Source: Thermoprotei archaeon (GTDB lineage Archaea; Thermoproteota; Thermoprotei_A; Sulfolobales; NBVN01). From it: a stretch of DNA of 41,753 nt. The notes beneath the pieces are model-generated. The model had not been told where the DNA came from and made no database searches. It saw nothing but the letters and a program-made list of their open reading frames with translations. The translations under genes were made by a program, and so were the position numbers. This document shows positions 1-41,350 of the stretch, in pieces; position 1 is the stretch's first letter; each line of letters opens with the position of its first letter. Location: contig QMWS01000002.1 of assembly GCA_003661745.1 (NCBI GenBank), forward strand, positions 1 to 41,753, given 5' to 3'.

Positions 1-830
1 ACCTTCTCCCGTCGTGAGCGTATTTTGTGCGATATGAGTTCCGCGAACCGGTGGATCTCCCGCGGCACCCTGTACGACTGCGCCAGAACACGCTCGCGGT
101 CGCCGGGCAATGGAGGGTCGAAGAATGCCCGTGGCTCCGCACCAGACCATTCATACAGCGATTGATCGTCGTCTCCGAACAGCGCCAGGAACCTGGTTCG
201 CCACGCTCGGAGCACGTCCAGTTGGAGCGGCGTATGATCCTGCGCCTCGTCCACGAGGACGACCTGCTGCGCCGGTAATACCCCGCCCCCGCGGCACGCC
301 TCGAGCCACATTGTATAGTCCATGTAGCCCGCGTCCTCACACCAGGCCTTCCAGTCTCTGTAGATCTCTCTCGCTTGCTCGTCCCACCGCGAGACCGGCC
401 ACATCCGCTGCCGATATTCCACCATACGTTCGAATGCGAGCGACCCGCGCGACATACGCGTCTCAGGCGCCTGTTCGTCCTCGTCGTCGTCGCTTACCCG
501 TCGGAGGCGCGGCACCTCGTCTGACCATCGCGCCGCGAAGCGCGGTACATCGAGGAACTCCTCGATCTTCGTCTCCGCCGGTGGCCCAGCCCCGAGCGCG
601 CGCTTGCACCGCGCGTGTAGCGTCGTCACGTTGTCCTTCCCCAGCAGCGTGACGAGATCAGTCCCGCTCCCATCGTCTCTGCCCGCCGCTTCGCGCACCG
701 CCGCACGCGTCAGGGAACAGACCGACACCTGGTCTTCTCCGAAGACGTCCGCCGCGCGAACCGCCCAGCGGGTTAGCTCTGTCGTCTTGCCCGTGCCAGG
801 TGGGCCGAAAATTCTATACTCCGCTGTCAT
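1..830 (-). CDS. SF1 (UvrD/RecD-like) DNA helicase, partial; C-terminus lies beyond the left edge
   Basis: This ORF is absent from the ORF track; I translated it by hand from the ATG at 830. It reads MTAEYRIFGPPGTGKTT (Walker A), VVLVDEAQD (Walker B/motif II), FGDDDQSLY (motif III) and LAQSYRVPREI (motif IV-like). The frame stays open to position 1. Confidence 0.8.
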   Translation of the reverse strand, partial: MTAEYRIFGPPGTGKTTELTRWAVRAADVFGEDQVSVCSLTRAAVREAAGRDDGSGTDLVTLLGKDNVTTLHARCKRALGAGPPAETKIEEFLDVPRFAARWSDEVPRLRRVSDDDEDEQAPETRMSRGSLAFERMVEYRQRMWPVSRWDEQAREIYRDWKAWCEDAGYMDYTMWLEACRGGGVLPAQQVVLVDEAQDHTPLQLDVLRAWRTRFLALFGDDDQSLYEWSGAEPRAFFDPPLPGDRERVLAQSYRVPREIHRFAELISHKIRSRREK

Positions 831-2768: not shown

Positions 2769-4109
2769 TCACCCTCCTAGGATATTTCTCGCGGCTTCTA
2801 TACCGCTTACTGCACATGCGACATGGCTATCTAGATAGCCGCTGGCATTTCCAACCACGTACACGCCTGGCACCCCGCTGACCTGCCAGCCGCGGTCAAC
2901 GGCAATGCGGTATCCATAATACTTCGCCTCGGGCGCGTAGATAACACCATTGGGCAACAAATCCGGCAACGCCTCCGACAGCGCTAAGATGAATCGCGCG
3001 AATGCACCGTGGACGCGCTTCGGAAGCACCCTGCCGAAATCGAACGCTATCGCCTTGTGATTCGTCCGCCGAAGCTTTCTCCTTCGGCCTCGCGCGACAC
3101 GGAGAAATTCCTCAATCGTCTGCACCGCCGTGCCGCCAGCCGCGTCGTTGACCCCTCGCGCCAGCGTGCGGACGTACTCCGGTGGGTCAGAGATCTCGTC
3201 CGTCTGCGCAATCCGCAGGATCAGTGCGAAATTACTGAACTGCGACTTCTTCTCGAGGAGATACGAGTGCCCGTTGACGTTTATGAAGCCCAGGCTCCGG
3301 TGGTTCTCGTTGACGACGAAACCACGCTGGTTGCAGCAGAATGTACGCACCTGCCAGTCGTCGTCGTCAGAGACCAATTTCCAGTCATAGAACTCCTCGA
3401 ACGCAGGCTCCAGCGCCTTCGCCGGTGCCTCGACCCGAAGGCCAAACCCCGCGTGCCCTGGCACCAGCGTGGCGCCCAAGCCGCGCAGCACCCGCTCGCT
3501 CCAGCCAGTCCCCGCGAGCCCGGTCGCGATCACCACAGCGTCGAATTCCTCTGTTCCATCTCGATGCTGAACAGCGACCTTGCCGCTCGACGGAAAGACG
3601 TCGTCAATCCCGCGCCGCACGAACTTGACGCCACGCTCGACGAGGTCGAGGATCTGCAATTGCGTCACAGCGCGGATCCCTTCCGTCCCGAAATGCAGGA
3701 GCGGGTAGGTCTGGAAGGTCAGCCCCGTCCCGCGCCAGTTCGGCGTCTTAGTTGACGAACTCGAAACCAACCGGTACGGGATCCCGCCCGAGCGCGCGAG
3801 CTCCACAAAGCGCTTCCCCACCGCCGCGAGGAGATCGTCGTATGTCGCGGGATCGAAGACATCGAGCCCTTGCGTCCCCCTGCCAAACGTGAGCTTCCCG
3901 TCACTCATACCGCCCGCGCCACCGTCGCCCTCGAGGATCGCGCACGTCTCGCACGGGCAATGGTCGAGCTCAGGCAGGCGGCACTCTGTCCGCGCGGACA
4001 TACGATCTCCGCGCTCGAAGATCGTCACGTCAACCTTGCCCACCAGGCCCTCGGCCGTGAAAAGCCCCGCTGGGCCAGCACCGATAATCGCAACTCGCCG
4101 CTTCCTCAC
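2769..4109 (-). CDS. FAD-dependent oxidoreductase (COG2509-like uncharacterised FAD dehydrogenase)
   Basis: Rossmann motif VAIIGAGPAGL near the N-terminus. GGAGGMSDGKL, RTFCCNQRGFVV and the C-terminal GVYVVGNASGY match the COG2509 pattern as I recall it. I prefer the GTG at 4109 because GGGAGGGG lies upstream and it shares one base with the upstream TAG; the ORF-track start is 4124. Confidence 0.75.
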   Translation of the reverse strand: MRKRRVAIIGAGPAGLFTAEGLVGKVDVTIFERGDRMSARTECRLPELDHCPCETCAILEGDGGAGGMSDGKLTFGRGTQGLDVFDPATYDDLLAAVGKRFVELARSGGIPYRLVSSSSTKTPNWRGTGLTFQTYPLLHFGTEGIRAVTQLQILDLVERGVKFVRRGIDDVFPSSGKVAVQHRDGTEEFDAVVIATGLAGTGWSERVLRGLGATLVPGHAGFGLRVEAPAKALEPAFEEFYDWKLVSDDDDWQVRTFCCNQRGFVVNENHRSLGFINVNGHSYLLEKKSQFSNFALILRIAQTDEISDPPEYVRTLARGVNDAAGGTAVQTIEEFLRVARGRRRKLRRTNHKAIAFDFGRVLPKRVHGAFARFILALSEALPDLLPNGVIYAPEAKYYGYRIAVDRGWQVSGVPGVYVVGNASGYLDSHVACAVSGIEAARNILGG

Positions 4110-4855
4110 TAGTTCCCCTCCCAAAGGCTCAGGATCTTGCTCATGTCCGGATCGAAAATCCCCCGCGCCTGCACCCCCCGTGCTTTGGCGAGGTAGCGCA
4201 TTTTCGTCTCCTCGGAGACATGCTCGCTCAGGAGCAGGTAGCGCCGGAGCCGCGTGTTGCCCTCGTCGTCCGTCTCCTCGAATGTGGTCAGCCTGGCCAA
4301 CACGTCCACAAACGCGCCAGCCTCAACGCCCAGCTGACCCGATAGCTGCGGGCACACCACGCCGAGCCGCTCGTCCGAACGCTCGTGCGCAAGCATTAAG
4401 ACGTGCATCCGCGCCTCCGGATCGTCCTGATACGCAAGATTCCTAAACGCCCTGATGACCTTGCGCATCTGGTCGCCCGTGCGCAACCAGTCCTGTCTGG
4501 TCGGCACTGGCGTTGCTTCGAGATCCTCCGCGCTCGCCCCACTGCCGACGATGCTCGCGAGACTCAACGCCCGCTGCATCTCGGTCAACGTGTCGAGCAC
4601 CACGCACCGATAGCCGCTCTTGCCCGAGGCGAGCATGTCGTAGACCTCCTGGACATCCGCCCACGACCGCGGCCGGACTATATCAACCGCCTTCCCGCGA
4701 ATCGTAAGCGTACCTGCCTCGAAGTCCACTAGCAGCACCGGCGACGTCGCCTCGCAGTCCGCCGCGGTGCCCGCGAGATGTGTCTTGCCAGACCCCGTCA
4801 CACCGTACACAAGGATGTTCAGGAACAGCGTGTCCTCTGCCGATACGATTTTCAT
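4109..4855 (-). CDS. AAA_24 / Sak4-like RecA-fold ATPase (recombination mediator)
   Basis: Walker A LVYGVTGSGKT and Walker B CVVLDTLTE. I chose the ATG at 4855 (MKIVSAED) because GGAGGG precedes it and it lies just after the upstream stop at 4857. The ORF-track start at 4915 would overlap the nuclease gene. Confidence 0.8.
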   Translation of the reverse strand: MKIVSAEDTLFLNILVYGVTGSGKTHLAGTAADCEATSPVLLVDFEAGTLTIRGKAVDIVRPRSWADVQEVYDMLASGKSGYRCVVLDTLTEMQRALSLASIVGSGASAEDLEATPVPTRQDWLRTGDQMRKVIRAFRNLAYQDDPEARMHVLMLAHERSDERLGVVCPQLSGQLGVEAGAFVDVLARLTTFEETDDEGNTRLRRYLLLSEHVSEETKMRYLAKARGVQARGIFDPDMSKILSLWEGN

Positions 4856-4856
4856 G

Positions 4857-5774
4857 CTACCCTCCAGTTTGAGTGTCGCCCGAGATATTACCACCGCCCC
4901 GCCCGTCTTGTTCATACTGTTTCCGACGGTGGTAAGATGTTCTGAGAATGAATTCCCAATCGCCGCCGCTCTGATACACGCGGCAGACCTCGCGGAAGTC
5001 GCACATCGCGCAGCGCACCTGCGCGGGTTGCGGATAGATCAGAACTTCCCTGCCGCGCGTCGCGATCAGCTCGCGATACTGCCCGTACGCGCGTGTCAGG
5101 AACACCTCGATGTGCCTCTTCGTACGCGAGACCACGTGCCGCTCAAACAGCCGCGACCGAACGCGCGGCCCTGGACGCTGCTTCCGCAAGCCGTTCCAGA
5201 TGACCCCTACTACGTGCTCCCCCTCGAGCCCGAGGTCGTCTGCCAGCGCCTGCCCCAACCACACCTGCGCGGACATCTGGTGATCGAGCTCGAGCCACGA
5301 CGGATCGAACCGCTGGAATGTCTTGTGCTCAAGGACGTAGAGATTTCCGTCCTCATAGCTGCGCACCAGGCCGTCCAGGCGCGCGTTGAGAATGCACGCC
5401 GTCCGCCGCCCCGACGGCGCAGGCAGCGGGCGACGAAGGACATGCTCCGTCGCGAGCACCTCGAAGTTGTCGCGATTCTTGTACGTCTCCCTGTACCCGC
5501 GGAGCATCGCGATCCCAAGATCCCGATGATCCCTGTACTCCGTGGGATCCAGGTCGTCCCTGCGCGCGTCCCAGACAGAGACGAAAACGTCCACAAGATC
5601 CCCGCGGCCAGCGTAGTATTCCTCGAGCGCGCGGTGGATCGCCGTGCCGAACTCGAGCGCCACCGCGCTGGCGATAGGCCGCCACCCCTCCCTATACCCA
5701 AGGTGCCATGCCAGCCGACACGACATCGCGTTCAGCTGGCTCGGACTCAGCGTCACTTGCCGTCGCTTTGCCAC
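4857..5774 (-). CDS. PD-(D/E)XK Cas4/RecB-like exonuclease with Fe-S cysteine set
   Basis: N-terminal LSPSQLNAMSC; catalytic-type RLDGLV ... YVLEHKT (D..ExK); C-terminal CAMCDFREVC. The overall pattern is C...CxxCx5C. GTG start preceded by GAGGAGG. Confidence 0.8.
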   Translation of the reverse strand: MAKRRQVTLSPSQLNAMSCRLAWHLGYREGWRPIASAVALEFGTAIHRALEEYYAGRGDLVDVFVSVWDARRDDLDPTEYRDHRDLGIAMLRGYRETYKNRDNFEVLATEHVLRRPLPAPSGRRTACILNARLDGLVRSYEDGNLYVLEHKTFQRFDPSWLELDHQMSAQVWLGQALADDLGLEGEHVVGVIWNGLRKQRPGPRVRSRLFERHVVSRTKRHIEVFLTRAYGQYRELIATRGREVLIYPQPAQVRCAMCDFREVCRVYQSGGDWEFILRTSYHRRKQYEQDGRGGGNISGDTQTGG

Positions 5775-8056: not shown

Positions 8057-8152
8057 GAAATTCCCCCTTTATTTTTGAAGAGAGTGAATCTTATAAAGTT
8101 ATATATCGAACGCGCCTCAAAATTAAGGAGCGGATTGCTTGGCATTGTTTCC
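8057..8152 (-). promoter_or_regulatory. AT-rich promoter-like element, copy A, directly upstream of the replication operon
   Basis: About 95 bp and nearly identical to copy B. The core is shared with copy C at 38139. In minus orientation it reads ...GCGCGTTCGATATATAACTTTATAAGATTCACTCTCTTCAAAAATAAAGGGGGAATTTC. It contains TATATA and TATAAG -10-like hexamers and ends 5 nt before the RuvC ATG. Confidence 0.5.
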
Positions 8153-8165
8153 CCTCAGCCCGCCG

Positions 8166-8260
8166 GAAATTCCCCTTTATTTTTGAAGAAAGTGAATCTT
8201 ATAAAGTTATATATCGAACGCGCCTCTAATTTAAGGAGCGGATTGCTTGGCATTGTTTCC
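8166..8260 (-). promoter_or_regulatory. AT-rich promoter-like element, copy B (tandem with copy A, 109-bp offset)
   Basis: A direct repeat of copy A with only a few substitutions over about 95 bp, judged by eye. Confidence 0.5.
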
Positions 8261-28810: not shown

Positions 28811-30141
28811 ACCCCCCTCTCGAATTGTGTCAGCAGCTTCTCCCCCAGCTCTGCGTCACCAGCCGTCCGCTCCTCCGCCATACGCTCGATCTCCTCAGGA
28901 CTGTAGCCAAGCTCCGCCAGTAGCTGCTCGCGGCTCACGCCCACCTGCTGCTTGAGCAGCGCCGTCTCAGCCTCCGCCCGCGGATTCCGCGGTGCAGCGT
29001 CTTCCCAGACTGTTGATAACCTGTAGTCTCCCTCGATCTCGCGCATCCGAAGCGCCAGGCTCATGCAGTCTTCCCAGACATCGCCGAACGTCTCCTGCAA
29101 ATTCGTGACGATCGTCGTGAGCCGCGCCTCCGCGGTCTTCATCGCCTCGCCCGAAGGCCAGCCGCCCGGGTCAAGCATGAGGTAGTGAAACGGGACTCCA
29201 GAGACACGCGCGATCTCCGCGCGGAAGGAATTCTGGACTTCCAGGAACTGCTTCAGATTCGCAGGGTCGAACTGACCGAACCGCACGTCGGGATCGCCGA
29301 CCGTCCAGATTCGCTCCACCCCAGGAGTGAATGGCGCCTTCGGCTTGCCCGTGACAGGATCAACCTCGACCTCAAGGCCGGTCGCCCACCGCTGCGGCAG
29401 TGAGACGTACTCCATTGCGACGAGCATATCCGCAACCGATTTGTTGAGTGCGTTCTGGAGCGGAATCACGTCCGCCAGCGCCGACCGCCCGAAGTTCGAC
29501 TCCCCCGTGCTGTCGTTCGCGAAGTGGAATACCGGAACCTGTCCCCAGGGATTCGGCACCACCGGCTCGTCCTCCAGCGGGACGTACCCCCGCGCGTCGC
29601 TAAGCGTGCCGTCCACCGCGCGCGACGTCACGTACTTCTCTATCCTATCTGGGTAGTAGAGATTTAGTCGAATCCGACCATCCTCAAGCCGCCACATCCG
29701 CGCCGCGCGCGTTATCTCGCCGTTCCCCTCGTCGCTGTACGCCACCGACATCCGGATAGCGCAGTTCGGATGAATCATCGGCAGTCCGTCCTGGCCGGGC
29801 CAAACAATCACGTACGCGTCACCATCCCTGAGCGCCATCCGATGCACGACACGTGACTTCCGCCCCATGCGGTTCTCTTGCCAAATGCCCCACGCCACGC
29901 CCGGCACCACGTCCTCCCCAGACTCCGCGCCGAAGCCGATTACAATCAGCCTGTCCGCCAGCGTGTCCACCACGACGCCGCAGAGGTTGTCTGCAAATGC
30001 ACTGAAGAACGATCCGAACGCGTTCCTGAAGCGCTCTGTCGCGAATGTAAGCTTGTGCTCGCCGTTGTAGTACTGCTGCGCAATCCTGTACCCCGGCTCG
30101 CGCGAGAGGATTGAATCTATCGCCCATTTGATGTCGCTCAT
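28807..30141 (-). CDS. portal protein (SPP1 gp6-like)
   Basis: 444 aa with an N-terminus typical of SPP1-type portals (YRIAQQYYNGEHKL...). It lies upstream of MuF. Confidence 0.9.
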   Translation of the reverse strand: MSDIKWAIDSILSREPGYRIAQQYYNGEHKLTFATERFRNAFGSFFSAFADNLCGVVVDTLADRLIVIGFGAESGEDVVPGVAWGIWQENRMGRKSRVVHRMALRDGDAYVIVWPGQDGLPMIHPNCAIRMSVAYSDEGNGEITRAARMWRLEDGRIRLNLYYPDRIEKYVTSRAVDGTLSDARGYVPLEDEPVVPNPWGQVPVFHFANDSTGESNFGRSALADVIPLQNALNKSVADMLVAMEYVSLPQRWATGLEVEVDPVTGKPKAPFTPGVERIWTVGDPDVRFGQFDPANLKQFLEVQNSFRAEIARVSGVPFHYLMLDPGGWPSGEAMKTAEARLTTIVTNLQETFGDVWEDCMSLALRMREIEGDYRLSTVWEDAAPRNPRAEAETALLKQQVGVSREQLLAELGYSPEEIERMAEERTAGDAELGEKLLTQFERGV

Positions 30142-30746
30142 CTTTGCCTCACTCTCTTCCGTATGTCAGGCCCGCGTCGGCTACCATGCGGCTCACGCGT
30201 GATCGGTGACCACGGCCTCCTGCGCCTCCGCGACGGCCGCACCTCCACGCGCTCCTGCTTGAGCTCCCCAGCCGTTGCGTATACCAGCCATGACTGCGGC
30301 AAGATACACGCCCGCGGCTTCACGATGTGGAAAGCCCTGAGGAACGCCAGCCGCTCGTCCTCGCCCTTCAGACATTCCGACCGCCACGTGACCAGGAACT
30401 CCCGCCCCGCATCGTCGTTGCGCACGAACAGCAGCTCGTACCCGTGGAGCAGCTGCCTCAAGTCAAGCACAACCGACCTGGTTAGCTTTCGCTCATCCAC
30501 CGTGCCCACGTCCGCTGCAAGAGTACCGTAGTTCCAGAGTGGAACTGCCATCTCCCAGGTGTCAAGAAACGAGAAGCCAGCGTCGAGCAGTCTGACAGGT
30601 ATCTTCATCCCGTGCGCAAGGAACAGCGTCTTGTCACCCGACAGCTCCCAATCGTCCGCGCCGCTCCGCACACGGATGCTGTACGGCGCTCCGAGTTGGT
30701 TCGCGATGCCACTGGCGTCGTCTATCGTCGCGATCACATTCGTCAT
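30138..30746 (-). CDS. hypothetical protein, last gene of the glycan cassette
   Basis: I set the start at the ATG at 30746 (MTNVIATIDD), which gives an ATGA overlap with the methyltransferase stop. Its own stop overlaps the portal ATG. Arg-rich C-terminal tail. No motif recognised. Confidence 0.6.
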   Translation of the reverse strand: MTNVIATIDDASGIANQLGAPYSIRVRSGADDWELSGDKTLFLAHGMKIPVRLLDAGFSFLDTWEMAVPLWNYGTLAADVGTVDERKLTRSVVLDLRQLLHGYELLFVRNDDAGREFLVTWRSECLKGEDERLAFLRAFHIVKPRACILPQSWLVYATAGELKQERVEVRPSRRRRRPWSPITREPHGSRRGPDIRKRVRQR

Positions 30747-31195
30747 TTGCGCACCCTCATCCGCGCCAGGAAGCTCGTCTCGGCGTTGTTCAGCCAGGGC
30801 CCCTTGACAATCTCCCACTTCCGCGGCGTATACCAGTGGTACGCGCGCCCCGCCTTCCGATCAGGGTCGAAATAGTCGAGCGCCCCCGGCGAGAGATGCC
30901 AGACATGCGTCGGATCCCTGTACGAGGTCTCGCTGTTCCACATGGGCAGCTTGATGAACAGCTCCGCGCCAGGCCGCAGGATGCGCCAGCACTCGTCCAG
31001 CGCCTCGACCAGCGTGATCCGGAGATGCTCGAACACCGAATGCGCGATGACCACGTCGAACGACTCGTCCGACCAGGGCCACGGTCGCTCGTTGAGGTCG
31101 TGCGTCACGTCGATCTCCTCGCGGTGCTTGACGAGATCGTGGTTCACCGCCCCACTGACGATCGAATTCCCTGCTCCAAGATTCAGGATCTTCAC
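30743..31195 (-). CDS. class I SAM-dependent methyltransferase
   Basis: Motif I KILNLGAGN and FDVVIAHSVFEHL of Methyltransf_11 type. I prefer the GTG at 31195 because GAGGAGGAGG precedes it and it gives a GTGA overlap; the ORF-track start is 31369. Confidence 0.75.
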   Translation of the reverse strand: MKILNLGAGNSIVSGAVNHDLVKHREEIDVTHDLNERPWPWSDESFDVVIAHSVFEHLRITLVEALDECWRILRPGAELFIKLPMWNSETSYRDPTHVWHLSPGALDYFDPDRKAGRAYHWYTPRKWEIVKGPWLNNAETSFLARMRVRK

Positions 31196-31965
31196 GCCTC
31201 CTCCTCTTCGAGCCATACTGCATATGGCGTCCGCTCTATCTCCGCCCGCACGGCGCCCCAGTTCTCGATGATCTCCGGCAGCGGCTGTGGGTTCACGCGG
31301 CGCAAATGGCAATGCAACATAGCCTGCGGCACGCCGAGGAAGTCGCAGATGCGGCTCGACACGTCCCACGGGATCCCCGTCGCCTCACCGTGCCCTGACC
31401 ACGCGATATCCTCGTATGTGAGCTCGAGCAGCTGAGAGAACTCCGCCAGTTTCGTCTTCGCGAACTCGTCCTGCTCACGCAGTTCTTCAATAGCCCTGAT
31501 GATAGACCGCGGCGCCAAGGACACCCGCTCGCGCATCGTGACCGCGCGGAATGTGTGTTGCGGCAGCGTAATGTGACCCGCGCGCGCCTTGCAGTTCAGC
31601 AGGAAGCTCACGGCCTGACGCAGGTAGTTTTCGCGCCGAAGATGAATCACAGCAGGCTGCGCCCTCACCAGGTACTCCCAGACGCCGTCTAGGAATGCCT
31701 GCCGGTATGTGAGTTTGCACATGCTCACATGATAACCAGTTTGGTCGAGCAGCGCCTGCAAGAGATCTACGCGGGTGATCCCGTCTAGGCAGTCGAGCCA
31801 CACGCTCCTGTAATGCAGCGGCTCGCCGCGGTCGCAGAAGATGTGCGGGTGATTACTCAGGCAATGTGCCAGGAACGTCCCCCCGCTTCGCAGCGACGCG
31901 ATGATTACCGCCGGTCGTGCGATGCCCCTGGTCATGTCGTTCTCGGTTATGCTCTCCGCTATCAT
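31192..31965 (-). CDS. Stf0-like sulfotransferase
   Basis: VIIASLRSGGTFL resembles a 5'-phosphosulfate-binding loop. HLRRENYLRQAVS resembles a 3'-phosphate-binding RR..Q.VS motif. I set the start at the ATG at 31965, which gives an ATGA overlap with the upstream stop. Confidence 0.7.
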   Translation of the reverse strand: MIAESITENDMTRGIARPAVIIASLRSGGTFLAHCLSNHPHIFCDRGEPLHYRSVWLDCLDGITRVDLLQALLDQTGYHVSMCKLTYRQAFLDGVWEYLVRAQPAVIHLRRENYLRQAVSFLLNCKARAGHITLPQHTFRAVTMRERVSLAPRSIIRAIEELREQDEFAKTKLAEFSQLLELTYEDIAWSGHGEATGIPWDVSSRICDFLGVPQAMLHCHLRRVNPQPLPEIIENWGAVRAEIERTPYAVWLEEEEA

Positions 31966-32789
31966 CTCCTCAGCTCCTCGTTGTACGCTCGAACCGCCTC
32001 GATGAGCCGCGCCGGCCGCCCCGTCCTCCTTGCCCACGCGCACAGGTTCGCCGTGTCCTTCGGCAAGCACTTGCCGCCGAAGCCGCGGTTCTCCGGATAC
32101 ACATAGGTGTGACTCCGCGACACCCGCGGGTCAGCCAGCCACAGCTCGCGCAGCTCGTGCCAGTCTACACCAGCCGCCGCGGCGAGATCATAGAATTGAT
32201 TGCAAAATGCGACCTTCGTCGCCAGCCAGGAGTTTTCCATCAACTTGCACAGCTCCGCCGTGCGCGCATCGGTCTGGTAGATGCGCAGCGACGAGTTGGT
32301 GACCAGCGTCCACGCCGTCGCGAATGCCCGCGTCACCTGCCGCGGCCCGCCCAGGATCACGAATGGCAGGCTGTTGCGGAGCGGGTGGTCAACCGTCTCG
32401 CCGTAGTACTCCGGCGAGAAGCAGGTGTTGCTCCCCAGCCACTCGGTCGTCCCGACCTCGACCGTGCTCTTAACGCACCAGTAGCGTACGCGATAATTCC
32501 AGCGCTCATACGCGTGGATGACTTCCGAGCAGTCGCAGCTCCCATCCTCCGCCTCGGGCGTCGGCACGCAGATGAACCCGAGCTCCCAATCCTTACGCTC
32601 ACCCTCAGGGAACGCCGCCAGGTCGTCCGCCACCCGCCGGACGACGCCGTCTACGTCCACGTAGTCCGCATCCGCGAAGAACCGCCCGATCTGCCGACCG
32701 ACATGGCCATAGCCGACGATGAGCGTCGGCGGGTGATGATTGACAACCTCTGGATGCGGCTTAGGCACCATGCTTTCGCTCCCACTCAC
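31962..32789 (-). CDS. nucleotide-sugar (UDP-glucose/GDP-mannose type) dehydrogenase, short form
   Basis: LIVGYGHVGRQIG is the Rossmann motif. GFGGKCLPKD is the catalytic Cys motif. The ORF ends about 30 aa after that motif. The start is either the GTG at 32789 or the ATG at 32771. Confidence 0.75.
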   Translation of the reverse strand: MSGSESMVPKPHPEVVNHHPPTLIVGYGHVGRQIGRFFADADYVDVDGVVRRVADDLAAFPEGERKDWELGFICVPTPEAEDGSCDCSEVIHAYERWNYRVRYWCVKSTVEVGTTEWLGSNTCFSPEYYGETVDHPLRNSLPFVILGGPRQVTRAFATAWTLVTNSSLRIYQTDARTAELCKLMENSWLATKVAFCNQFYDLAAAAGVDWHELRELWLADPRVSRSHTYVYPENRGFGGKCLPKDTANLCAWARRTGRPARLIEAVRAYNEELRR

Positions 32790-34443
32790 TCACCTTCCTC
32801 CACGCCCTTTCACTGTCGATCCGCCCCGGGATTGCGCCCGACCACCTGCGCGCCTGCTTCGGGAAATGCAGAATGCCCGCGGTCTCCACGCCCTCGGAGT
32901 ATGCCGGGAACGTGTTCCACTCGTTCCCCAGGACAAGCGTCCGCGGCGGGTCAGCATACAGCGCCATAAGCAGCGGCCCCTGGTCGCGCTGCGCAAACAC
33001 CTCCCACTCCTCGCGCCACCGCTTGAAGAACCGCTCCACACGCTCGCAGCGCCTGAACGCCCACACGCCACCATTCAGCTGAATCGTGTGAAGTGTCTTG
33101 ACAGCCCTACGCACCTTCCGCATCTCCGCGGCGTTATTTCGCCTGCGGTACGAGAACATCGTGTCCATGAGGTGCGGGTCTTTGCAGATGATGAATTCCC
33201 AACCGTCCTCGATCCACTCGAAGAACCGATACACCGGCGCGGTCACCAGGGTGTCGGCGTCGAGGTACAGCACCGATTCCCACTCCGCCGGACTCAGCTC
33301 GTATGCGCGAAGCTTAGCCCGCCTGCCGCCGATGTCACTGTCCTCCTGCTGGACGAAGACGTCCTCCAGCCCCAGCGGCTCCGCGCCGCATAGGCAAACG
33401 GGGATGTCCGGCATATGCTCCTTGATGCTCTCCAAGAGTCTGCTTGCGCACTTGCGCGCAGGGCCGCCGAACGCGACGACGTAAATCCCCCGCGTCGAGC
33501 CCGTGCCGTGATCTATCGGGTCAGCCATCTTGACCTTCACCTTCGCCTTCTTCCGCACCGTCTGGCGAACCCGCGGCGCGATAGCCTGGAACGCCTGGTC
33601 GTGCGCGGCGACGAAGTTCTCGACAGAGTGCTCCGCCGTCGCGTCACGGAGCGCATCTCTGTCAACACTCCTGCACGTGTCCATGGCCAGGAGCAGCGCC
33701 AGTATCATGCTCTTCGCGTCGCCGCGATTGAAGCGATGTATGCCATTGACGTCCGGCAGCTCATCGTGGAGCCCGACGCCCTTCGAGATCACCACGGGCA
33801 CGCCGCACGCCAGCGCCTCCAGGGTCGGCATCGGGATCCCCTCGACCCGCGACGGCACCAGCAGGATGTCCAAGCCGCGATAGAAGTCAGGCATCTCCGC
33901 CCACTTGTAGCGCCTCGTCGGCACCGGCCAGCCACGGCCGCTCGCTCGCCACTCCACGCGCCCGCCCAGCACCCCCGCCGCGAAGCGAACCAGATTCTCG
34001 CCCTTCCGCTGATTACGATACGTATACCCCGAGACGCCTATGACCACCGGCCCCGACCGCTTGCTCCTGGCGGGCGTGAATCGATCCCGCTCAACCGGCG
34101 CGGGCACCTGCACCGTCGGCCCGCGCGGAGACAGCAGGTCGGTGTAGATCCCAGCGGTGGTTATCCGCAGATCCACCCGCCGCCCCACCGAATCGAATAA
34201 CTTCGCCTTCGAGTTACCAGGGGGCTCCTCCTCGCGATGCGTGAAATACGCCGCCACAGGGACGTCGGGCCAGGGCTTCAGCCGCTGCGCCTCGAAATAC
34301 GCAAGCATGTACAGCGCGTCCGCGTCGTCCTCGATCACGCCATATCGCAGGCTCCATCCCAGGCGCTCCGCTAGATACCTCGCCATGCGCGGGATCACGC
34401 GGTCGTCCCGCCAGTTTCGGCACCAAATCTGCACGTTCACCAC
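32761..34443 (-). CDS. two-domain glycosyltransferase (GT-B/GT4-like N-terminal half plus GT-A/GT8-like C-terminal half)
   Basis: N-terminal half: LLVPSRVEGIPMPTLEALACGVPVV (EX7E). C-terminal half: VLYLDADTLV (DxD) and NGGVWAF. The GTG start overlaps the TerL stop. Confidence 0.8.
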   Translation of the reverse strand: MVNVQIWCRNWRDDRVIPRMARYLAERLGWSLRYGVIEDDADALYMLAYFEAQRLKPWPDVPVAAYFTHREEEPPGNSKAKLFDSVGRRVDLRITTAGIYTDLLSPRGPTVQVPAPVERDRFTPARSKRSGPVVIGVSGYTYRNQRKGENLVRFAAGVLGGRVEWRASGRGWPVPTRRYKWAEMPDFYRGLDILLVPSRVEGIPMPTLEALACGVPVVISKGVGLHDELPDVNGIHRFNRGDAKSMILALLLAMDTCRSVDRDALRDATAEHSVENFVAAHDQAFQAIAPRVRQTVRKKAKVKVKMADPIDHGTGSTRGIYVVAFGGPARKCASRLLESIKEHMPDIPVCLCGAEPLGLEDVFVQQEDSDIGGRRAKLRAYELSPAEWESVLYLDADTLVTAPVYRFFEWIEDGWEFIICKDPHLMDTMFSYRRRNNAAEMRKVRRAVKTLHTIQLNGGVWAFRRCERVERFFKRWREEWEVFAQRDQGPLLMALYADPPRTLVLGNEWNTFPAYSEGVETAGILHFPKQARRWSGAIPGRIDSERAWRKVSEWERKHGA

Positions 34444-35642: not shown

Positions 35643-36033
35643 CCACGACCTCCTCAACCAGCTTCAGCTTCACCTCGCCGTCGTGCATGTGCCGAACCCG
35701 CTGGCCGTACACCTCGGGACGGCGTGATGTGAGAATAAACGTCAATAATTTATCGCTACTTTCTTGAGCACGCTTCCAGGCAATAGCCTCGAGACCATCC
35801 AGCGCCTCTTCCAGCGCCTCGTCCCACGCCGCCTCGAACGTCTTCCAGCGCCGTCGCGCACAGTACGCACCGCCTCGCGTAATACCAGCGGCCTGACAGG
35901 CGGCGCGCACGTTCGCGGTGTTCCGCAGCGCCGCGATAAACCTGGCCATCCACGGCCGCGGCAAGTCGCGCCTCCGGCCGATCAGCGGCCCCAGCTCCCC
36001 TGTACCGCCTTTTCTGCTCTCCCTCTTGCTCAT
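35596..36033 (-). CDS. terS: terminase small subunit (HTH type)
   Basis: 145 aa directly upstream of terL. It has an HTH-like segment NVRAACQAAGITRGGAYCARR. Confidence 0.7.
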   Translation of the reverse strand: MSKRESRKGGTGELGPLIGRRRDLPRPWMARFIAALRNTANVRAACQAAGITRGGAYCARRRWKTFEAAWDEALEEALDGLEAIAWKRAQESSDKLLTFILTSRRPEVYGQRVRHMHDGEVKLKLVEEVVVAGAEDQAESEAESV

Positions 36034-37487
36034 ACCTCCAACTCCGGATTCAAACCATCATCTGCGAATCTCTCCAGGGCGACGGCGACGTAGCGAGGCT
36101 CGCGTTCTGTGGCTATGCATCTCCGCCGCAATCGCTCGCACGCCAGAAGCGTCGTCCCCGACCCGAGGAACGGCTCCCACACCAGGTCGCCCTGCTCGCT
36201 ATAGACCTCGATCGCGCGCAGCGGCAGCTCCAGCGGGAACGCTGCGACGTGATATCGCAACGGCGAGCCTTCGGCGTCGTGCGTACTCCAGACTGCGTGG
36301 ACGGACATGCGCCACTTCCGGCGTGGCAGGCGGCGCTCCTTGCCGCCCTTCGACCTGAACGTCCATACGAAATCATATCCCTCGATGGGCACTCCTGAAA
36401 ATACCCTCCACAAATTCTCCAGCCACTGCTGGGCTACAATATCGTCCTCCAGCAACTCCGTGGATCGTTGCGGCACCCGCCTGATAACCAGCTCCTCCGG
36501 CTCGTCGTCCTCGCCCCCGGGCGCGCGGAACGACCACACGTACTCCCACTCCTGATGGTGTGGGATCGTTGAGTGGTACGACCAGAACGGTGCCGGAAGG
36601 CGCTCGAAGGGCTTCCGCCAGATCCGATTCGCCCAAAGCTTCCAACCGTGACGACGGAAGCGCTCGTTGTAGATGCACGACATCAGGAAGACGCCGTAAC
36701 TCGCGTCCCCCGTAATGCGCTCGACGATGCTCTTGACGTAGATGTCGCCGAAGTTGACGACGAAGTAGCCGCCAGGAATCACAACACGCGCGCCGACCTC
36801 AGCAGTCTTGTCGATCAGCTCCACCAGGTCGCCGAACGCCTCCCCCTCCTCGTACTCCTTACCCACGCCGTAGGGCGGCGACGTCACCGCCATGCGCGCC
36901 CGCTCACCAGCGAAAAGCGCCTCCACCGCCTCGATGTCCGTGCAGTCGCCCACAAGCAGCTTGTGCTCCCCGACCCGCCAGACCTGACCAGGCTCGACCC
37001 CCCACTTCTCGCGCAGCTCCTCCGCCTCGTCCACGCGCGGCTCAGCGGTCTCGTCGGAGTCCGAATCGAACTCCCTACCTATCCCTTCCGCAAGGCTGTC
37101 GAGCAAGTCGCGCACCGCGTCGTTGCCCGTCTGCACGTCGCTCAGAAGATCCGCCAGCGCCTCGGGATCCGTCTCCGCCGCCGCAGCCAGCGGATCCAGC
37201 GTCGCGAGCGTAAGCTTCTCCTCGTCCTCATCGAGGTCAACGTACAGGACAGGTATGGTCGGCTCTTTGCGTGACAGGGCCAGCGCCACGCGCAGGTGGC
37301 CGTCCAGGATGAAGCCGGTGCGCTTGTTCACGATGACCTGCTGCACCCAGCCAACCTCGTCAAGAACGCCCTCCAACGCTCCCCGCTGCGCATCAGGGTG
37401 CGCGCGCCAGTTCCGCGGATTCGCGACGAGATCGCCAGGTGGCACGTCCGCACTACCAACTATCCGATTCCTCCAACGTCGCTTCAC
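36030..37487 (-). CDS. ParB-like nuclease domain fused to a beta-class N6A/N4C DNA methyltransferase
   Basis: N-terminus: NPRNWRAHP...VIVNKRTGFILDGHLRV (ParB/Srx fold). Middle: VTSPPYG (motif IV). C-terminus: VWEPFLGSGTT (motif I). Confidence 0.85.
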   Translation of the reverse strand: MKRRWRNRIVGSADVPPGDLVANPRNWRAHPDAQRGALEGVLDEVGWVQQVIVNKRTGFILDGHLRVALALSRKEPTIPVLYVDLDEDEEKLTLATLDPLAAAAETDPEALADLLSDVQTGNDAVRDLLDSLAEGIGREFDSDSDETAEPRVDEAEELREKWGVEPGQVWRVGEHKLLVGDCTDIEAVEALFAGERARMAVTSPPYGVGKEYEEGEAFGDLVELIDKTAEVGARVVIPGGYFVVNFGDIYVKSIVERITGDASYGVFLMSCIYNERFRRHGWKLWANRIWRKPFERLPAPFWSYHSTIPHHQEWEYVWSFRAPGGEDDEPEELVIRRVPQRSTELLEDDIVAQQWLENLWRVFSGVPIEGYDFVWTFRSKGGKERRLPRRKWRMSVHAVWSTHDAEGSPLRYHVAAFPLELPLRAIEVYSEQGDLVWEPFLGSGTTLLACERLRRRCIATEREPRYVAVALERFADDGLNPELEV

Positions 37488-38138: not shown

Positions 38139-38215
38139 GAAATTTCCCCTTTATTTTTGAAGAGAATGAATCTTATAAAGTTATATATCGAACGCGCCCT
38201 TAGTTTAAGAAGGCA
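38139..38215 (-). promoter_or_regulatory. AT-rich promoter-like element, copy C, upstream of the packaging/structural operon
   Basis: It shares the ~62-bp core GAAATT(T)CCCCTTTATTTTTGAAGAG(A/G)(A/G)TGAATCTTATAAAGTTATATATCGAACGCGCC with copies A and B. The distal part diverges. Confidence 0.5.
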
Positions 38216-38297
38216 TTTTGAGCGGATGATCAGATACGCCAATCGCCCCGGTGCATTTACACGCCAGGGCGATTAGGCTACAATCCTGGTAGACCCC

Positions 38298-38335
38298 GGC
38301 GCGAGGCCACCGCCCCCTCCCGGTGGCCCCGCGCC
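38298..38335 (-). terminator. GC-rich hairpin after the 38354 gene (terminator-like, no U-tract)
   Basis: GGCGCGAGGCCACCG-ccccctcc-CGGTGGCCCCGCGCC, with one mismatch. It lies between an early gene stop and element copy C. Confidence 0.45.
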
Positions 38336-38353: not shown

Positions 38354-38680
38354 CTAGCAGGCGAGGAAGAACTTGCTTATCTCCTTCGCGAGCGTCGCCT
38401 TCTCCTCGCTGCCCAGTGCCAGTTCTTCGAGGAGCTCGACCGCCGCTTGCAGCGCCTCGTTGTAGCGCGTCTCCGCCGCGCGCAGCTCGTCGCGGAGCCC
38501 CCTGGTGAATGCCGCGTACTCTTTCCGCGTCATCCCGAGCTCCTCTCGCATCTCGTCCGCCGTCTCCCAGTCCAGTTCGTCGTACGGAACTGGGAAGTCC
38601 TCCGCGCGCTCCTGCGCGCGTAGCTTGGCGCCTGTCGCTTTTTCCAGCTCTTCGACGATCCTCTTGGCCTTGGCTTTCAT
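38354..38680 (-). CDS. hypothetical protein
   Basis: I prefer the ATG at 38680 (MKAKAKRIVE) because GAGGAGG precedes it. The sequence is charged and helical in character. Confidence 0.6.
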   Translation of the reverse strand: MKAKAKRIVEELEKATGAKLRAQERAEDFPVPYDELDWETADEMREELGMTRKEYAAFTRGLRDELRAAETRYNEALQAAVELLEELALGSEEKATLAKEISKFFLAC

Positions 38681-38731: not shown

Positions 38732-39079
38732 CTAGACGACCGCGAGCGCGCGAGCGCCGAGGATCCGTCCGTTCTCGTCCCGGATCAGCGCCGCCGGAAT
38801 CACGACCAGGTAGCCAGCGTCCTCCGGCGTCGGCCCGAGCGCCTGCGCCAGGAGCGCCGAGACCACGTAGACGTGGCCCGGCCTGAACTCTGGCAGGCCC
38901 TGCGGCTTGCCGAAACGCTTCCGGATCACCGGCACGTCCACGCCCTCCGCGCAGACCGTGCCGACGACCTCTGTCTCCTCCTCCAGCCGCGGCGGGCTGT
39001 CGCAGCGGTCGATCGTGATCGACAGCCCGTTGCCGTTGCAGATGGTCACCGGGTGTGGAGTTAGATTAACAATCTTCAT
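38732..39079 (-). CDS. hypothetical protein whose RBS and first codons form the terminal copy of the 69-bp array
   Basis: MKIVNLTPHPVTICNG... RBS GGAGTTGGAGTG. The ORF is also open upstream to 39151 and 39205 through two degenerate repeat units. Confidence 0.65.
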   Translation of the reverse strand: MKIVNLTPHPVTICNGNGLSITIDRCDSPPRLEEETEVVGTVCAEGVDVPVIRKRFGKPQGLPEFRPGHVYVVSALLAQALGPTPEDAGYLVVIPAALIRDENGRILGARALAVV

Positions 39080-39862
39080 CACTCCAACTCCATCCGGTCG
39101 TGGCGCGTCGGCTGGCACCAAGTCTGGATTTGAACTAATTAATTTCATCATTTCAACTCCATCGAGCCGCGGCGCTCGGCGGCGCCCCTGGTCGGCGTCG
39201 GGCATGGAGTTGAACTAATTAATTTCATCAACTCAACTCTAGACTCCGTGTCGACCTCGGCTGACGCGAAGTCTCGACTTAGACTGATTAATTTCATCAA
39301 CTCAACTCCATCGCGCGCTGCGCCTCCGGCCGACCCGAAGTCTCGACTTAGACTAATTAATTTCATCAATTCAACTCTAGACTTCGCGGCGTCCCCGGTC
39401 GACGCGAAGTCTCGACTTAGACTAATTAATTTCATCAACTCAACTCTAGACTTCGCGTCGCCCTCGGTCGACCCGAAGTCTCGACTTAGACTAATTAATT
39501 TCATCAACTCAACTCCATCGCGCGCGGCGTCCTCGGCCAACGCCAGATCTAGACTTAGACTAATTAATTTCATCAACTCAACTCTAGACTTCGTGCCGAC
39601 CTCGGCCAGCGCCAGATCTAGACTTAGACTAATTAATTTCATCAACTCAACTCTAGACTTCGTGCCGACCTCGGCCGACCCGAAGTCTCGACTTAGACTA
39701 ATTAATTTCATCAACTCAACTCGAGACTTCTGGTCGGCCTCGGCCGACCAGAAGTCTCGACTTAGACTAATTAATTTCATCAACTCAACTCTAGACTTCG
39801 TGCCGACCTCGGCCAACGCGAAGTCTCGACTTAGACTAATTAATTTCATCAACTCAACTCCG
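39061..39862 (-). repeat. tandem array of 12 units of about 69 bp
   Basis: Units start at 39061, 39130, 39210, 39279, 39348, 39417, 39486, 39555, 39624, 39693, 39762 and 39831. Each has a conserved AT-rich core TTAGACTAATTAATTTCATCAACTCAACTC plus a variable GC-rich segment flanked by inverted arms. Confidence 0.95.
39148..39849 (-). other. open frame through ten array units (23-aa repeat MKLISLSRDFxSAExxxKSRVEL); coding status unresolved
   Basis: The period is 69 bp, which is 23 codons. The ATG at 39849 shares one base with the upstream TGA, and the stop overlaps the next ATG. Against coding: the core uses AT-rich codons (TTA, CTA, ATT, AGT, AAA) and the opposite strand is also open. Confidence 0.3.
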
Positions 39863-41318: not shown

Positions 41319-41350
41319 GGTCGCCGGAGCCGTTCCCGGCTCCGGCGACC
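41319..41350 (-). terminator. rho-independent-type terminator
   Basis: GGTCGCCGGAGCC-gttccc-GGCTCCGGCGACC is a perfect 13-bp stem. On the minus strand it is followed by GCTTCTTCTC and begins 8 nt after the 41358 stop. Confidence 0.6.

Follow-up and report, generated by a model that had tools for sequence, protein, structure and literature searches.

A tandem array of start-region copies upstream of a phage crn4b-type ring nuclease gene

The stretch of DNA analysed here, hereafter the window, is the whole of contig QMWS01000002.1 (41,753 nt, 41.7 kb), and its positions are used for all coordinates. It is a siphovirus-like phage contig of 62% GC, in which the minus strand carries all genes. Recognisable phage genes encode a primase-polymerase, Sak4, a helicase, a lysin, tape measure, major tail and capsid proteins, a portal protein, TerL, TerS and a methylase with a ParB domain. 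Between the stop codon of a 243-aa gene, which we call gene A, and the start of a 115-aa gene of the crn4b type lie 12 in-register modules with a 69-nt period (Table 1). This tandem array and its relationship to the start of crn4 are the subject of this report.

Table 1. Features of the array and of the genes and hairpins around it, in window positions.
Feature	Position	Strand	Basis and remarks
Gene A, 243 aa	39849..40580	-	ORF (open reading frame) list; the last A of stop TGA 39851-39849 also opens the ATG of unit 1, giving TGATG
Array reading frame, 234 codons, 23-aa repeat MKLISLSRDF..SRVEL	39148..39852	-	ORF list; open through ten units
Nine canonical 69-nt units	39240..39860	-	33-nt invariant AU-rich core GAGTTGAGTTGATGAAATTAATTAGTCTAAGTC (contains TGATG) and 36-nt variable GC-rich quasi-palindrome
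Best inter-core hairpin (unit 2)	39723..39758	-	Perfect 16-bp stem with loop CGAG in the 16-pair scheme, all Watson-Crick; RNAfold extends pairing into the loop and flanks
Unit 10, 80 nt, ATG 39228	39160..39239	-	Keeps the 3' arm TCAACTCC of the putative ancestral start-site hairpin; 11 extra nt shift the frame
Unit 11, 69 nt, ATGs 39151 and 39148	39091..39159	-	In frame with crn4; array frame stops at TGA 39150-39148, overlapping both ATGs (ATGA, TGATG)
Real crn4 translation initiation region, the twelfth, degenerate unit	39056..39092	-	Predicted long hairpin with one internal mismatch; GGAG at its base, AUG next to the loop
crn4b-type CRISPR ring nuclease gene, 115 aa	38732..39079	-	Profile, fold and PADLOC; an in-frame 139-aa form could start at 39151
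108-aa acidic protein gene, last of the block	38354..38680	-	ORF list; helical by reading of the sequence
GC hairpin GGCCACCG-N8-CGGTGGCC	38305..38328	-	Read from the sequence; 3' of the block, followed by an AT-rich promoter-like element at 38215-38147

By all the sequence and fold features examined, the gene downstream of the array encodes a predicted member of the Crn4 family. The profile built from 31 homologues matched Crn4b (9r7b, E = 1e-27) and Crn4a (9sma, E = 7e-19) in the PDB, and the AlphaFold2 (AF2) model of the 115-aa protein (predicted local distance difference test score (pLDDT) 94.7) gave significant Foldseek matches in the PDB to Crn4 entries only (E ~1e-8, TM 0.68-0.74). PADLOC assigned the protein to Unk_01 (E = 3e-17), which is the earlier name of Crn4 (PMC12830947). 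Three residues that are invariant in the 31 homologues, T7, H9 and R100, correspond to T13, H15 and R112 of Crn4a, which are conserved in that protein, with H15 and R112 being essential to catalysis (PMC12830947). Phage and plasmid Crn4b proteins are probably anti-CRISPRs, and those of phages are rare, having been found in 11 of 28,137 phage genomes; some Crn4 proteins have N-terminal extensions, and Crn4 also occurs fused to the C terminus of effector proteins (PMC12830947). The phage Crn4b encoded here is probably an enzyme that acts against type III CRISPR and cyclic oligoadenylate (cOA).

The homologues are about 110 aa long and begin MKIVNLTPH, with N5-L6-T7-P8-H9 invariant. The ATG at 39079 is therefore the true start, and the array was derived from the 5' end of the gene, not the reverse. 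Unrelated phages have crn4 in their early region, with an HTH_3 gene directly 3'. This arrangement is seen in three ENA contigs from an abundant group of 38-43-kb phages (L016, L017 and L019), in which crn4 at 5001-5333 (2462-2794 in L017) is followed by a 154-aa HTH_3 gene. A crn4 gene followed by HTH_3 corresponds to the classic acr-aca layout, which lends support to an anti-CRISPR role of phage Crn4b. Another viral contig (L015, IMGVR_UViG_3300031788_000819) carries tandem crn4 paralogues at ~3530-4465, with a second ATGAAAATCATAAACCTGACACCGCAC start 469 nt upstream of the first; this is a duplication of the whole gene and not of the start region.

A preliminary description of the locus had placed minus-strand ATGs at 39849, 39780, 39711, 39642, 39573, 39504, 39435, 39366, 39297, 39228, 39148 and 39079. 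The tandem array is present and all twelve ATGs are where they had been listed. Tandem Repeats Finder returned a 69-nt repeat at 39214-39860 (9.4 copies, score 905), and the 17-nt motif GGAGTTGAGTTGATGAA, when up to three mismatches were allowed, occurred 12 times in the window, against a chance expectation of 0.09. All of these occurrences fall in the array register, including the one at the real gene start. Successive modules are 69 nt apart, the one exception being an 80-nt unit (ATG 39228).

The same description had proposed that the array arose when the crn4 start region was amplified and that the gene begins in its last, degenerate unit. Our analysis agrees, on the strength of the common register, the graded similarity of units 39228 and 39148, and the N terminus of the homologues. 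These two units are intermediate in sequence between a canonical unit and the real start, keeping ..TCAACTCCA and ..TCAAATCCA, and 19 of the first 27 coding nucleotides are identical between the gene and a canonical unit by our own count, the same number that had been given before. Sequence comparison thus indicates that the array arose within one lineage, by tandem amplification of the junction between the gene A stop and the crn4 start, together with the start region. The units are less uniform than had been described. All had been said to carry GGAG, which is present in only 5 of the 12 modules (39849, 39504, 39297, 39148 and 39079), six others having AGAG and one CGAG; the codons AGT-CTA-AGT, also attributed to each unit, read AGT-TCA-A(C/A)T in units 39228 and 39148.

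Pairing with the anti-Shine-Dalgarno (anti-SD) sequence gave duplex energies of -5.9 to -6.1 kcal/mol at the GGAG modules, where the median of the phage genes is -7.2. At six of the seven modules without GGAG, the energies were -2.4 to -2.5 kcal/mol, weaker than the genome background of -4.2 at random positions. In module 39228, the only -6.1 pairing comes from a GGAG that sits 15 nt 5' of the ATG, which is too far. Seven of the 12 modules have no usable SD, and the earlier count of twelve SD-AUG modules was overstated.

The nine canonical units could be aligned without gaps, columns 1-33 forming the core and columns 34-69 the variable part. The core (30% GC) is invariant at 31 of 33 columns, with two substitutions, whereas the variable part (64% GC) is invariant at 13 of 36 columns and varies at the other 23 (Fisher p = 3e-7). 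Mean pairwise divergence among the nine units is 1.3% in the core versus 26.6% in the variable part, and the array as a whole contains 11 near-identical 33-bp cores. The two unit halves evolve under very different regimes, and the array looks to be under selection at the nucleotide level. Within the variable part, left and right halves have also been reassorted among units, the left halves of units 3 and 8 being identical, as are the right halves of units 1, 3 and 4; the array therefore evolves by unequal exchange.

One explanation for such a pattern is a functionless tandem repeat, in which a 69-bp segment was amplified by slippage or unequal crossover and is tolerated for its open frame and coupling junctions. 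Uniformity of the core would then come from turnover of the array, and diversity of the variable part from template switching at the quasi-palindromes and from reshuffling. The mosaic units, which show active unequal exchange, are in keeping with this explanation, as are the restriction of the array to a single phage lineage, a pN/pS close to 1 in its reading frame and the weak SDs of most units. However, a 20-fold gap in divergence between adjacent unit halves is hard to obtain by whole-unit turnover, and the conserved part happens to be the start-like segment. We consider a functionless repeat unlikely, although not negligible.

It is most improbable that the array is an artefact of assembly, with population variants of a shorter repeat chained into a longer one. 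The window contig is a short-read metagenome assembly at ~14x coverage, and identical blocks of 33-49 nt blur the order and copy number of the units. Nevertheless, a second, sister contig (ENA ERZ1742239 NODE_900, 41,803 nt) carries an identical array; over the 17.3 kb compared, one single-nucleotide polymorphism at window 33337 is the sole difference. In addition, each of the nine distinct variable segments would require its own junction reads.

For seven of the nine canonical units, folding gives a hairpin whose stem is ~16 bp long (-22 to -40 kcal/mol per unit, z = -2.4 to -8.4). Units 5 and 8, which have another right arm (..GCGCGCGATG), have no such fold. The most stable example is unit 2 (-40.1 kcal/mol for the whole unit, z = -8.4), which differs from the other units by two-sided, compensatory changes. 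Within the 16-pair helix, 77.8% of cells are paired, compared with 32-46% when partners are slid, and five pairs show two-sided changes, compared with 2.3 +/- 1.1 in shuffles; resting on nine related sequences, these pairing statistics are suggestive. The cores were computed to be mostly unpaired in local folds, lying between the hairpins. Single-stranded motifs that are fixed in sequence, combined with stems that are free to covary, are the usual signature of a functional structured RNA. The invariant core, the structurally kept hairpin and the contrast in divergence therefore match this signature. Perfect palindromes can arise by template switching without selection, and a functionless repeat could have acquired that of unit 2 in this way, but the pairing is kept well above the slid controls.

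Mismatched cells in the helix contain G-U more often than A-C (13 versus 5), and none of the hairpins or start-site stems is less stable on the sense strand than on the antisense strand. Both observations point to structure at the RNA level over structure at the DNA level. They bear on the possibility that the array acts as DNA, as an iteron array at a replication origin, a sopC-like partition site or a site for a packaging protein, with the AT-rich core as a binding or unwinding element. Eleven conserved AT-rich sites stand out against a genome of 62% GC, and cruciforms could form from the GC palindromes. Among the phage proteins are a primase-polymerase, helicases and a methylase fused to a ParB-like domain; as the contig is not closed, partner genes may lie outside it. 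Like the iteron and centromere arrays F sopC (12 x 43 bp) and P1 incA, the locus has about a dozen tandem direct repeats with a conserved site in each. Unlike them, its structure is strand-asymmetric, being G-U-dependent and weaker on the other strand, and the 69-bp unit corresponds to ~6.6 helical turns, a non-integral phasing. No initiator gene or ParA/ParB pair is adjacent, the only ParB-like domain being that of the methylase, a common phage type, 1.7 kb away. Moreover, the repeat derives from a gene start region, which a DNA-binding role would not require. We give a DNA-level array only a slim chance.

Unlike the canonical units, the real crn4 start appears to be locked. Its predicted hairpin, of which CUAACUCC is an arm, has a folding energy of -17.4 kcal/mol (z = -4.3), and the start region is more stable on the sense strand (-14.9 kcal/mol) than on the antisense strand (-7.2 kcal/mol). 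Local folding gave its SD and AUG accessibilities of 0.09 and 0.21, the lowest among the 12 modules and 18 other genes. Other crn4 genes show a weaker version of the same pairing, between the SD and the Thr-Pro codons, and none comes near this stability. The hairpin is weaker in units 39228 (-11.9 kcal/mol) and 39148 (-9.5 kcal/mol). In the canonical units, which lack the 3' arm because TCAACTCC has changed to TCTAAGTC, the same segment reaches only -3.4 to -6.1 kcal/mol, and AUG accessibility is like that of ordinary genes. The folding models predict that the crn4 start is unusable without help. We also considered whether the 5' halves of the units might compete for the 3' arm of the real hairpin and so act as anti-sequestering elements; examined by hand, this seemed unlikely, as the native hairpin is local and has more G-C pairs. 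As a separate observation, the start region of TerS (window 36033-36047, minus strand; GGAGTTGGAGGTATG) is identical to that of crn4 (GGAGTTGGAGTGATG) at 13 of 15 positions.

Ten of the ATGs, from 39849 to 39228, lie in one common frame that is out of frame with crn4 and ends at TGA 39150-39148; the ATGs in frame with crn4 are 39148 and 39151 (and 39205). Nested N-terminal isoforms of the downstream protein, which had been suggested for the whole array, are possible only from these in-frame positions, whereas the ten out-of-frame ATGs could yield only nested forms of a 234-aa repeat polypeptide. Stop and start codons overlap at both ends of the array frame, as TGATG at 39851-39847 and as ATGATG at 39151-39146 with the stop at 39150-39148, and GGAG lies 5' of each overlap. 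In the sister contig, an independent gene caller had predicted a chain of 243-aa, 233-aa and 139-aa genes, starting the 139-aa form of Crn4 in unit 11.

These features raise the question of whether the array is a genuine gene for a protein of 23-aa repeats that arose by duplication of the crn4 N terminus. Its 234-codon frame is open, the unit length equals 23 x 3, its start and stop are coupled to both neighbours and the gene caller reported it in the sister contig. In addition, the only two substitutions in the core are both synonymous in this frame, two events being too few to weigh. By contrast, the composition of the frame is unlike that of a gene: pN/pS is 0.99, GC content at third codon positions is 0.56 compared with 0.75-0.85 in real genes, and 7 of the 23 codons per unit, or ~30%, are rare in the phage (TTA 2.8, AAA 5.6 and AGT 6.1 per 1000). 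The invariant NLTPH motif has been lost. Queried as a protein, the frame had no homologues among 5.8 billion proteins, and its Pfam and PHROG matches included no significant single stretch; AF2 modelled the polypeptide with a pLDDT of 47, which is weak evidence as it comes from a single sequence. The array frame is without constraint at the protein level and is not gene-like, and a genuine repeat protein seems very unlikely.

The reading that we tentatively favour, while holding it to be less than an even bet, is that the array acts in cis as an mRNA leader, loading or relaying ribosomes onto the locked start of crn4. We favour a cis-acting translational role because the start-derived, open and AU-rich core would suit the small ribosomal subunit and because the crn4 start is predicted to need help. 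On this inferred reading, a single mRNA would cover the region, ribosomes would bind or translate the units, and the output of Crn4 would rise. The array would then be a structured leader within a polycistronic mRNA, in which the canonical units, having lost the start-site hairpin, would present the 33-nt start-like core as a single-stranded platform between GC hairpins.

Two routes, which are not mutually exclusive, could connect such a leader to crn4. In a relay, ribosomes that finish gene A would reinitiate at TGATG, and others would start at the three internal units with GGAG. Translation of the array frame would melt the structure of the array and terminate at TGA 39150-39148, from where reinitiation on the overlapping ATG in the crn4 frame would produce the 139-aa Crn4 and open the locked hairpin for starts at 39079. 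In the standby route, the AU-rich single-stranded cores would serve as sites for the 30S subunit and ribosomal protein S1 beside the sequestered start, as in tisB and the MS2 coat gene.

Both routes have precedents, and Crn4 proteins with N-terminal extensions or fusions occur in nature (PMC12830947), in keeping with a 139-aa form. Overlapping stop and start codons drive termination-reinitiation coupling (PMC6728339), and the locus has this arrangement in the TGATG between gene A and the array frame and in the ATGA/TGATG between the array frame and crn4, with GGAG upstream of both. It differs from known coupled pairs in that the relay frame would be a 700-nt repeat without protein-level constraint, placed between two genes that were presumably once directly coupled. 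For a relay of such a kind between coupled genes, we know of no precedent. Standby sites, which consist of a single-stranded stretch with 5' structure, rescue sequestered starts (PMC6690012, PMC5934652). The crn4 locus resembles those of the MS2 coat gene and of tisB +42 mRNA (PMC5934652, PMC6690012) in its predicted hairpin-locked start and in its upstream single-stranded stretches with 5' structure, and the AU-rich composition of the array would suit ribosomal protein S1. Known cases have one such site, whereas about eleven are arranged in tandem here; the predicted platforms of the array are also copies of a start region with AUGs in an open frame.

Several observations weigh against a cis-acting leader. 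With 7 of the 12 modules lacking a usable SD, most units would be poor sites for conventional initiation. A relay needs only the first and last junctions, which leaves the invariance of each internal core unexplained, and the phage-rare codons throughout the array frame would slow it. The 80-nt unit had a ~1-in-3 chance of giving a relay-compatible frame. The excess of G-U and the greater stability of the sense strand may be accounted for in part by the G-richness of that strand. Finally, the array is present in none of 22 other crn4 loci and in no related phage, so that it has no comparative support.

The preliminary description had suggested that the array acts as a ribosome or repressor sponge, which is possible. 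A related proposal is that it is a multi-site sponge or operator for an RNA- or DNA-binding regulator, either an Aca-like repressor of the crn4 start or a host factor, with the 11 decoys buffering or delaying repression. With 11 occurrences of one invariant 33-nt motif set between hairpins, the array has the architecture of a sponge RNA. Csr/Rsm sponge RNAs such as CsrB and RsmY/Z contain many short conserved single-stranded motifs (GGA) between hairpins, and the array likewise shows a repeated single-stranded motif between predicted hairpins, although its motif is AU-rich, 33 nt long and located within a presumed mRNA between two genes. Aca1 and Aca2 bind structured 5' RNA of acr genes, their motif lying over the ribosome-binding site of the anti-CRISPR gene, and titration of the regulator by extra copies of the site has been proposed (bioRxiv 10.64898/2026.07.27.740549). 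The crn4 locus has a predicted structured motif in the same position, and the crn4 genes of other phages have an HTH_3 gene directly behind them, in an acr-aca-like arrangement.

Set against this proposal, no helix-turn-helix or other nucleic-acid-binding gene, Aca-like or otherwise, was recognised beside crn4 in the window, the copies number eleven instead of one or two, and the rest of the genome is free of the motif. The canonical cores also lack the hairpin of the real start and would be invisible to a binder specific for it. A binding array strikes us as unlikely. In design, the array resembles standby sites, coupling junctions and sponge RNAs.

A further group of explanations has the array RNA acting against host defence. 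The RNA might be an anti-defence or regulatory RNA that acts together with Crn4 and is possibly processed at the hairpins into units of ~69 nt, for which we see a small chance. The processed units might load ribosomes onto the anti-CRISPR message, or serve as a decoy or sponge for a host RNA-binding factor of immunity or regulation. More specifically, the array might imitate CRISPR repeats, as an RNA anti-CRISPR (Racr) or a mini-array of viral origin would; it might pose as the antitoxin of a type III toxin-antitoxin system; or it might be a decoy for an effector that targets RNA, in each case operating beside Crn4. Blower et al. are said to have described in 2012 that phages can expand RNA repeats mimicking ToxI, and the present array would be comparable to such an expansion. 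With 33 nt invariant and 36 nt variable, the units have CRISPR-like dimensions, and the array adjoins an anti-CRISPR gene, as many Racrs do (PMC10651486). However, the 'spacers' are homologous to one another (~73% identity) and form hairpins of one design, so that they are not unique, acquired sequences, and the repeat derives from the gene's own start. Even at E <= 10, it matched no CRISPR-DR family in Rfam and no ToxI family. No host array with the motif was found in 185,579 species genomes or in the metagenome set, which gave chance matches only; as the host is unidentified, this search was not exhaustive. We regard these specific forms of anti-defence RNA as highly unlikely.

Membership of three known classes fails for want of their defining features. 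The array is not a CRISPR array, for the reasons just given. A ToxIN-like type III toxin-antitoxin locus was rejected, as the downstream gene is crn4 and has no ToxN-like match, no terminator intervenes and no ToxI family was matched. Repetitive extragenic palindromes or bacterial interspersed mosaic elements (REP/BIME) were rejected as well, since the hairpin motif is confined to the array and was absent from all viral contigs searched.

Searches for related arrays were negative. By blastn, the region had no match in 50,697 phage records and the array none in 72,556 plasmids. In IMG/VR, searches with the exact 33-mer and with two-copy and hairpin patterns returned only an unrelated 15-nt simple repeat (L120). 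A permissive two-copy pattern found 89 loci in metagenome contigs and GTDB genome contigs, none of them within 7 mismatches of the core. Among 22 crn4 loci (15 from IMG/VR, 5 from ENA and 2 Thermobifida phages), none had an upstream tandem array or a duplicated start region, and relatives of the phage identified through TerL (57-70% identity; 7 loci from 5 proteins) had neither crn4 nor the array. Elsewhere in the genome, the core and hairpin motifs do not occur, and a dispersed 'start-associated sequence' was rejected, the motif being confined to the array. The array matched no known RNA family and contains no tRNA, sigma-70-like promoter or intrinsic terminator, and inspection by eye gave no convincing match of the core to a promoter or an integration host factor (IHF) site. 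A derivation of the unit tail from the 3' end of gene A was unsupported, with at most 15 of 24 identities where the null maximum was 17. The array is known from one phage lineage and belongs to no described family.

The genes on either side of the array offer few clues to their functions. Gene A is a full-length member of an uncharacterised family with 393 representatives at 50% identity, whose homologues align to residues 7-240; members are typically 215-245 aa long, some with long C- or N-terminal additions. It has no match in Pfam, PHROG, PADLOC or the PDB. Being coupled to crn4, gene A may have an early or an anti-defence function. The idea that longer homologues of gene A are fusions to Crn4 was rejected, their extra C-terminal parts being without the NLTPH motif by eye. 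The 108-aa protein encoded downstream of crn4 has no family or PDB match, and no relatives of either neighbour were found in IMG/VR.

The GC hairpin that follows the 108-aa gene probably marks the end of the transcription unit that contains the array, a boundary inferred from a hairpin without a U-tract. Upstream, the region has a single terminator-like site, a perfect 14-bp GC hairpin with a T-rich tail at window 41319-41350 (minus strand), before a 110-aa zinc-ribbon gene; the unit may begin there. An AT-rich element of ~70 nt (..CGATATATAACTTTATAAGATTCAC/TT..TTCAAAAATAAAGGGGAATTTC) occurs in three minus-strand copies (window 38147-38215, 8168-8232 and 8060-8125), each 3' of a GC hairpin and 5' of an SD and start codon; these elements, which are probably phage promoters or operon boundaries, and the array cores are the only AT-rich spots in the genome. 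On the plus strand, a strong sigma-70-like match (TTTACA-17-TACAAT, 10/12) at window 38256-38284 faces antisense into the 108-aa gene, crn4 and the array. It could give rise to an antisense RNA or be a chance match.

At the far end of the window, a helicase ORF with the UvrD-like motifs GPPGTGKT, DEAQD and QSYRVP (window 1-830, minus strand) is cut by the contig end after motif IV. As this ORF runs past position 1, the contig is neither complete nor closed; the sister contig extends 50 nt further at this end. Between the terminase and portal genes (window 30138-34443, minus strand), Pfam marks on the sister contig show genes for a glycosyltransferase, a UDP-glucose dehydrogenase-like protein and a methyltransferase, an unusual insertion in the structural module.

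Viral ring nucleases must be made quickly and in quantity to destroy cyclic oligoadenylate alarm signals. To our knowledge, little has been learned about how phages tune the expression of these enzymes beyond the Aca repressors. The locus adds one phage Crn4b to a very short list, and it is a compact, synthesisable test case in which a predicted locked start is preceded by eleven 'unlocked' copies of itself. Were the array functionless, it would still be a snapshot of the amplification and remodelling of a start region. If the array RNA is a device that acts in cis or in trans, it would represent a new class of such devices, born from a gene's own start region. If it boosts or times the synthesis of Crn4, it would be the first natural multi-copy leader for loading or relaying ribosomes, a new form of anti-CRISPR gene regulation and possibly a part for synthetic biology.

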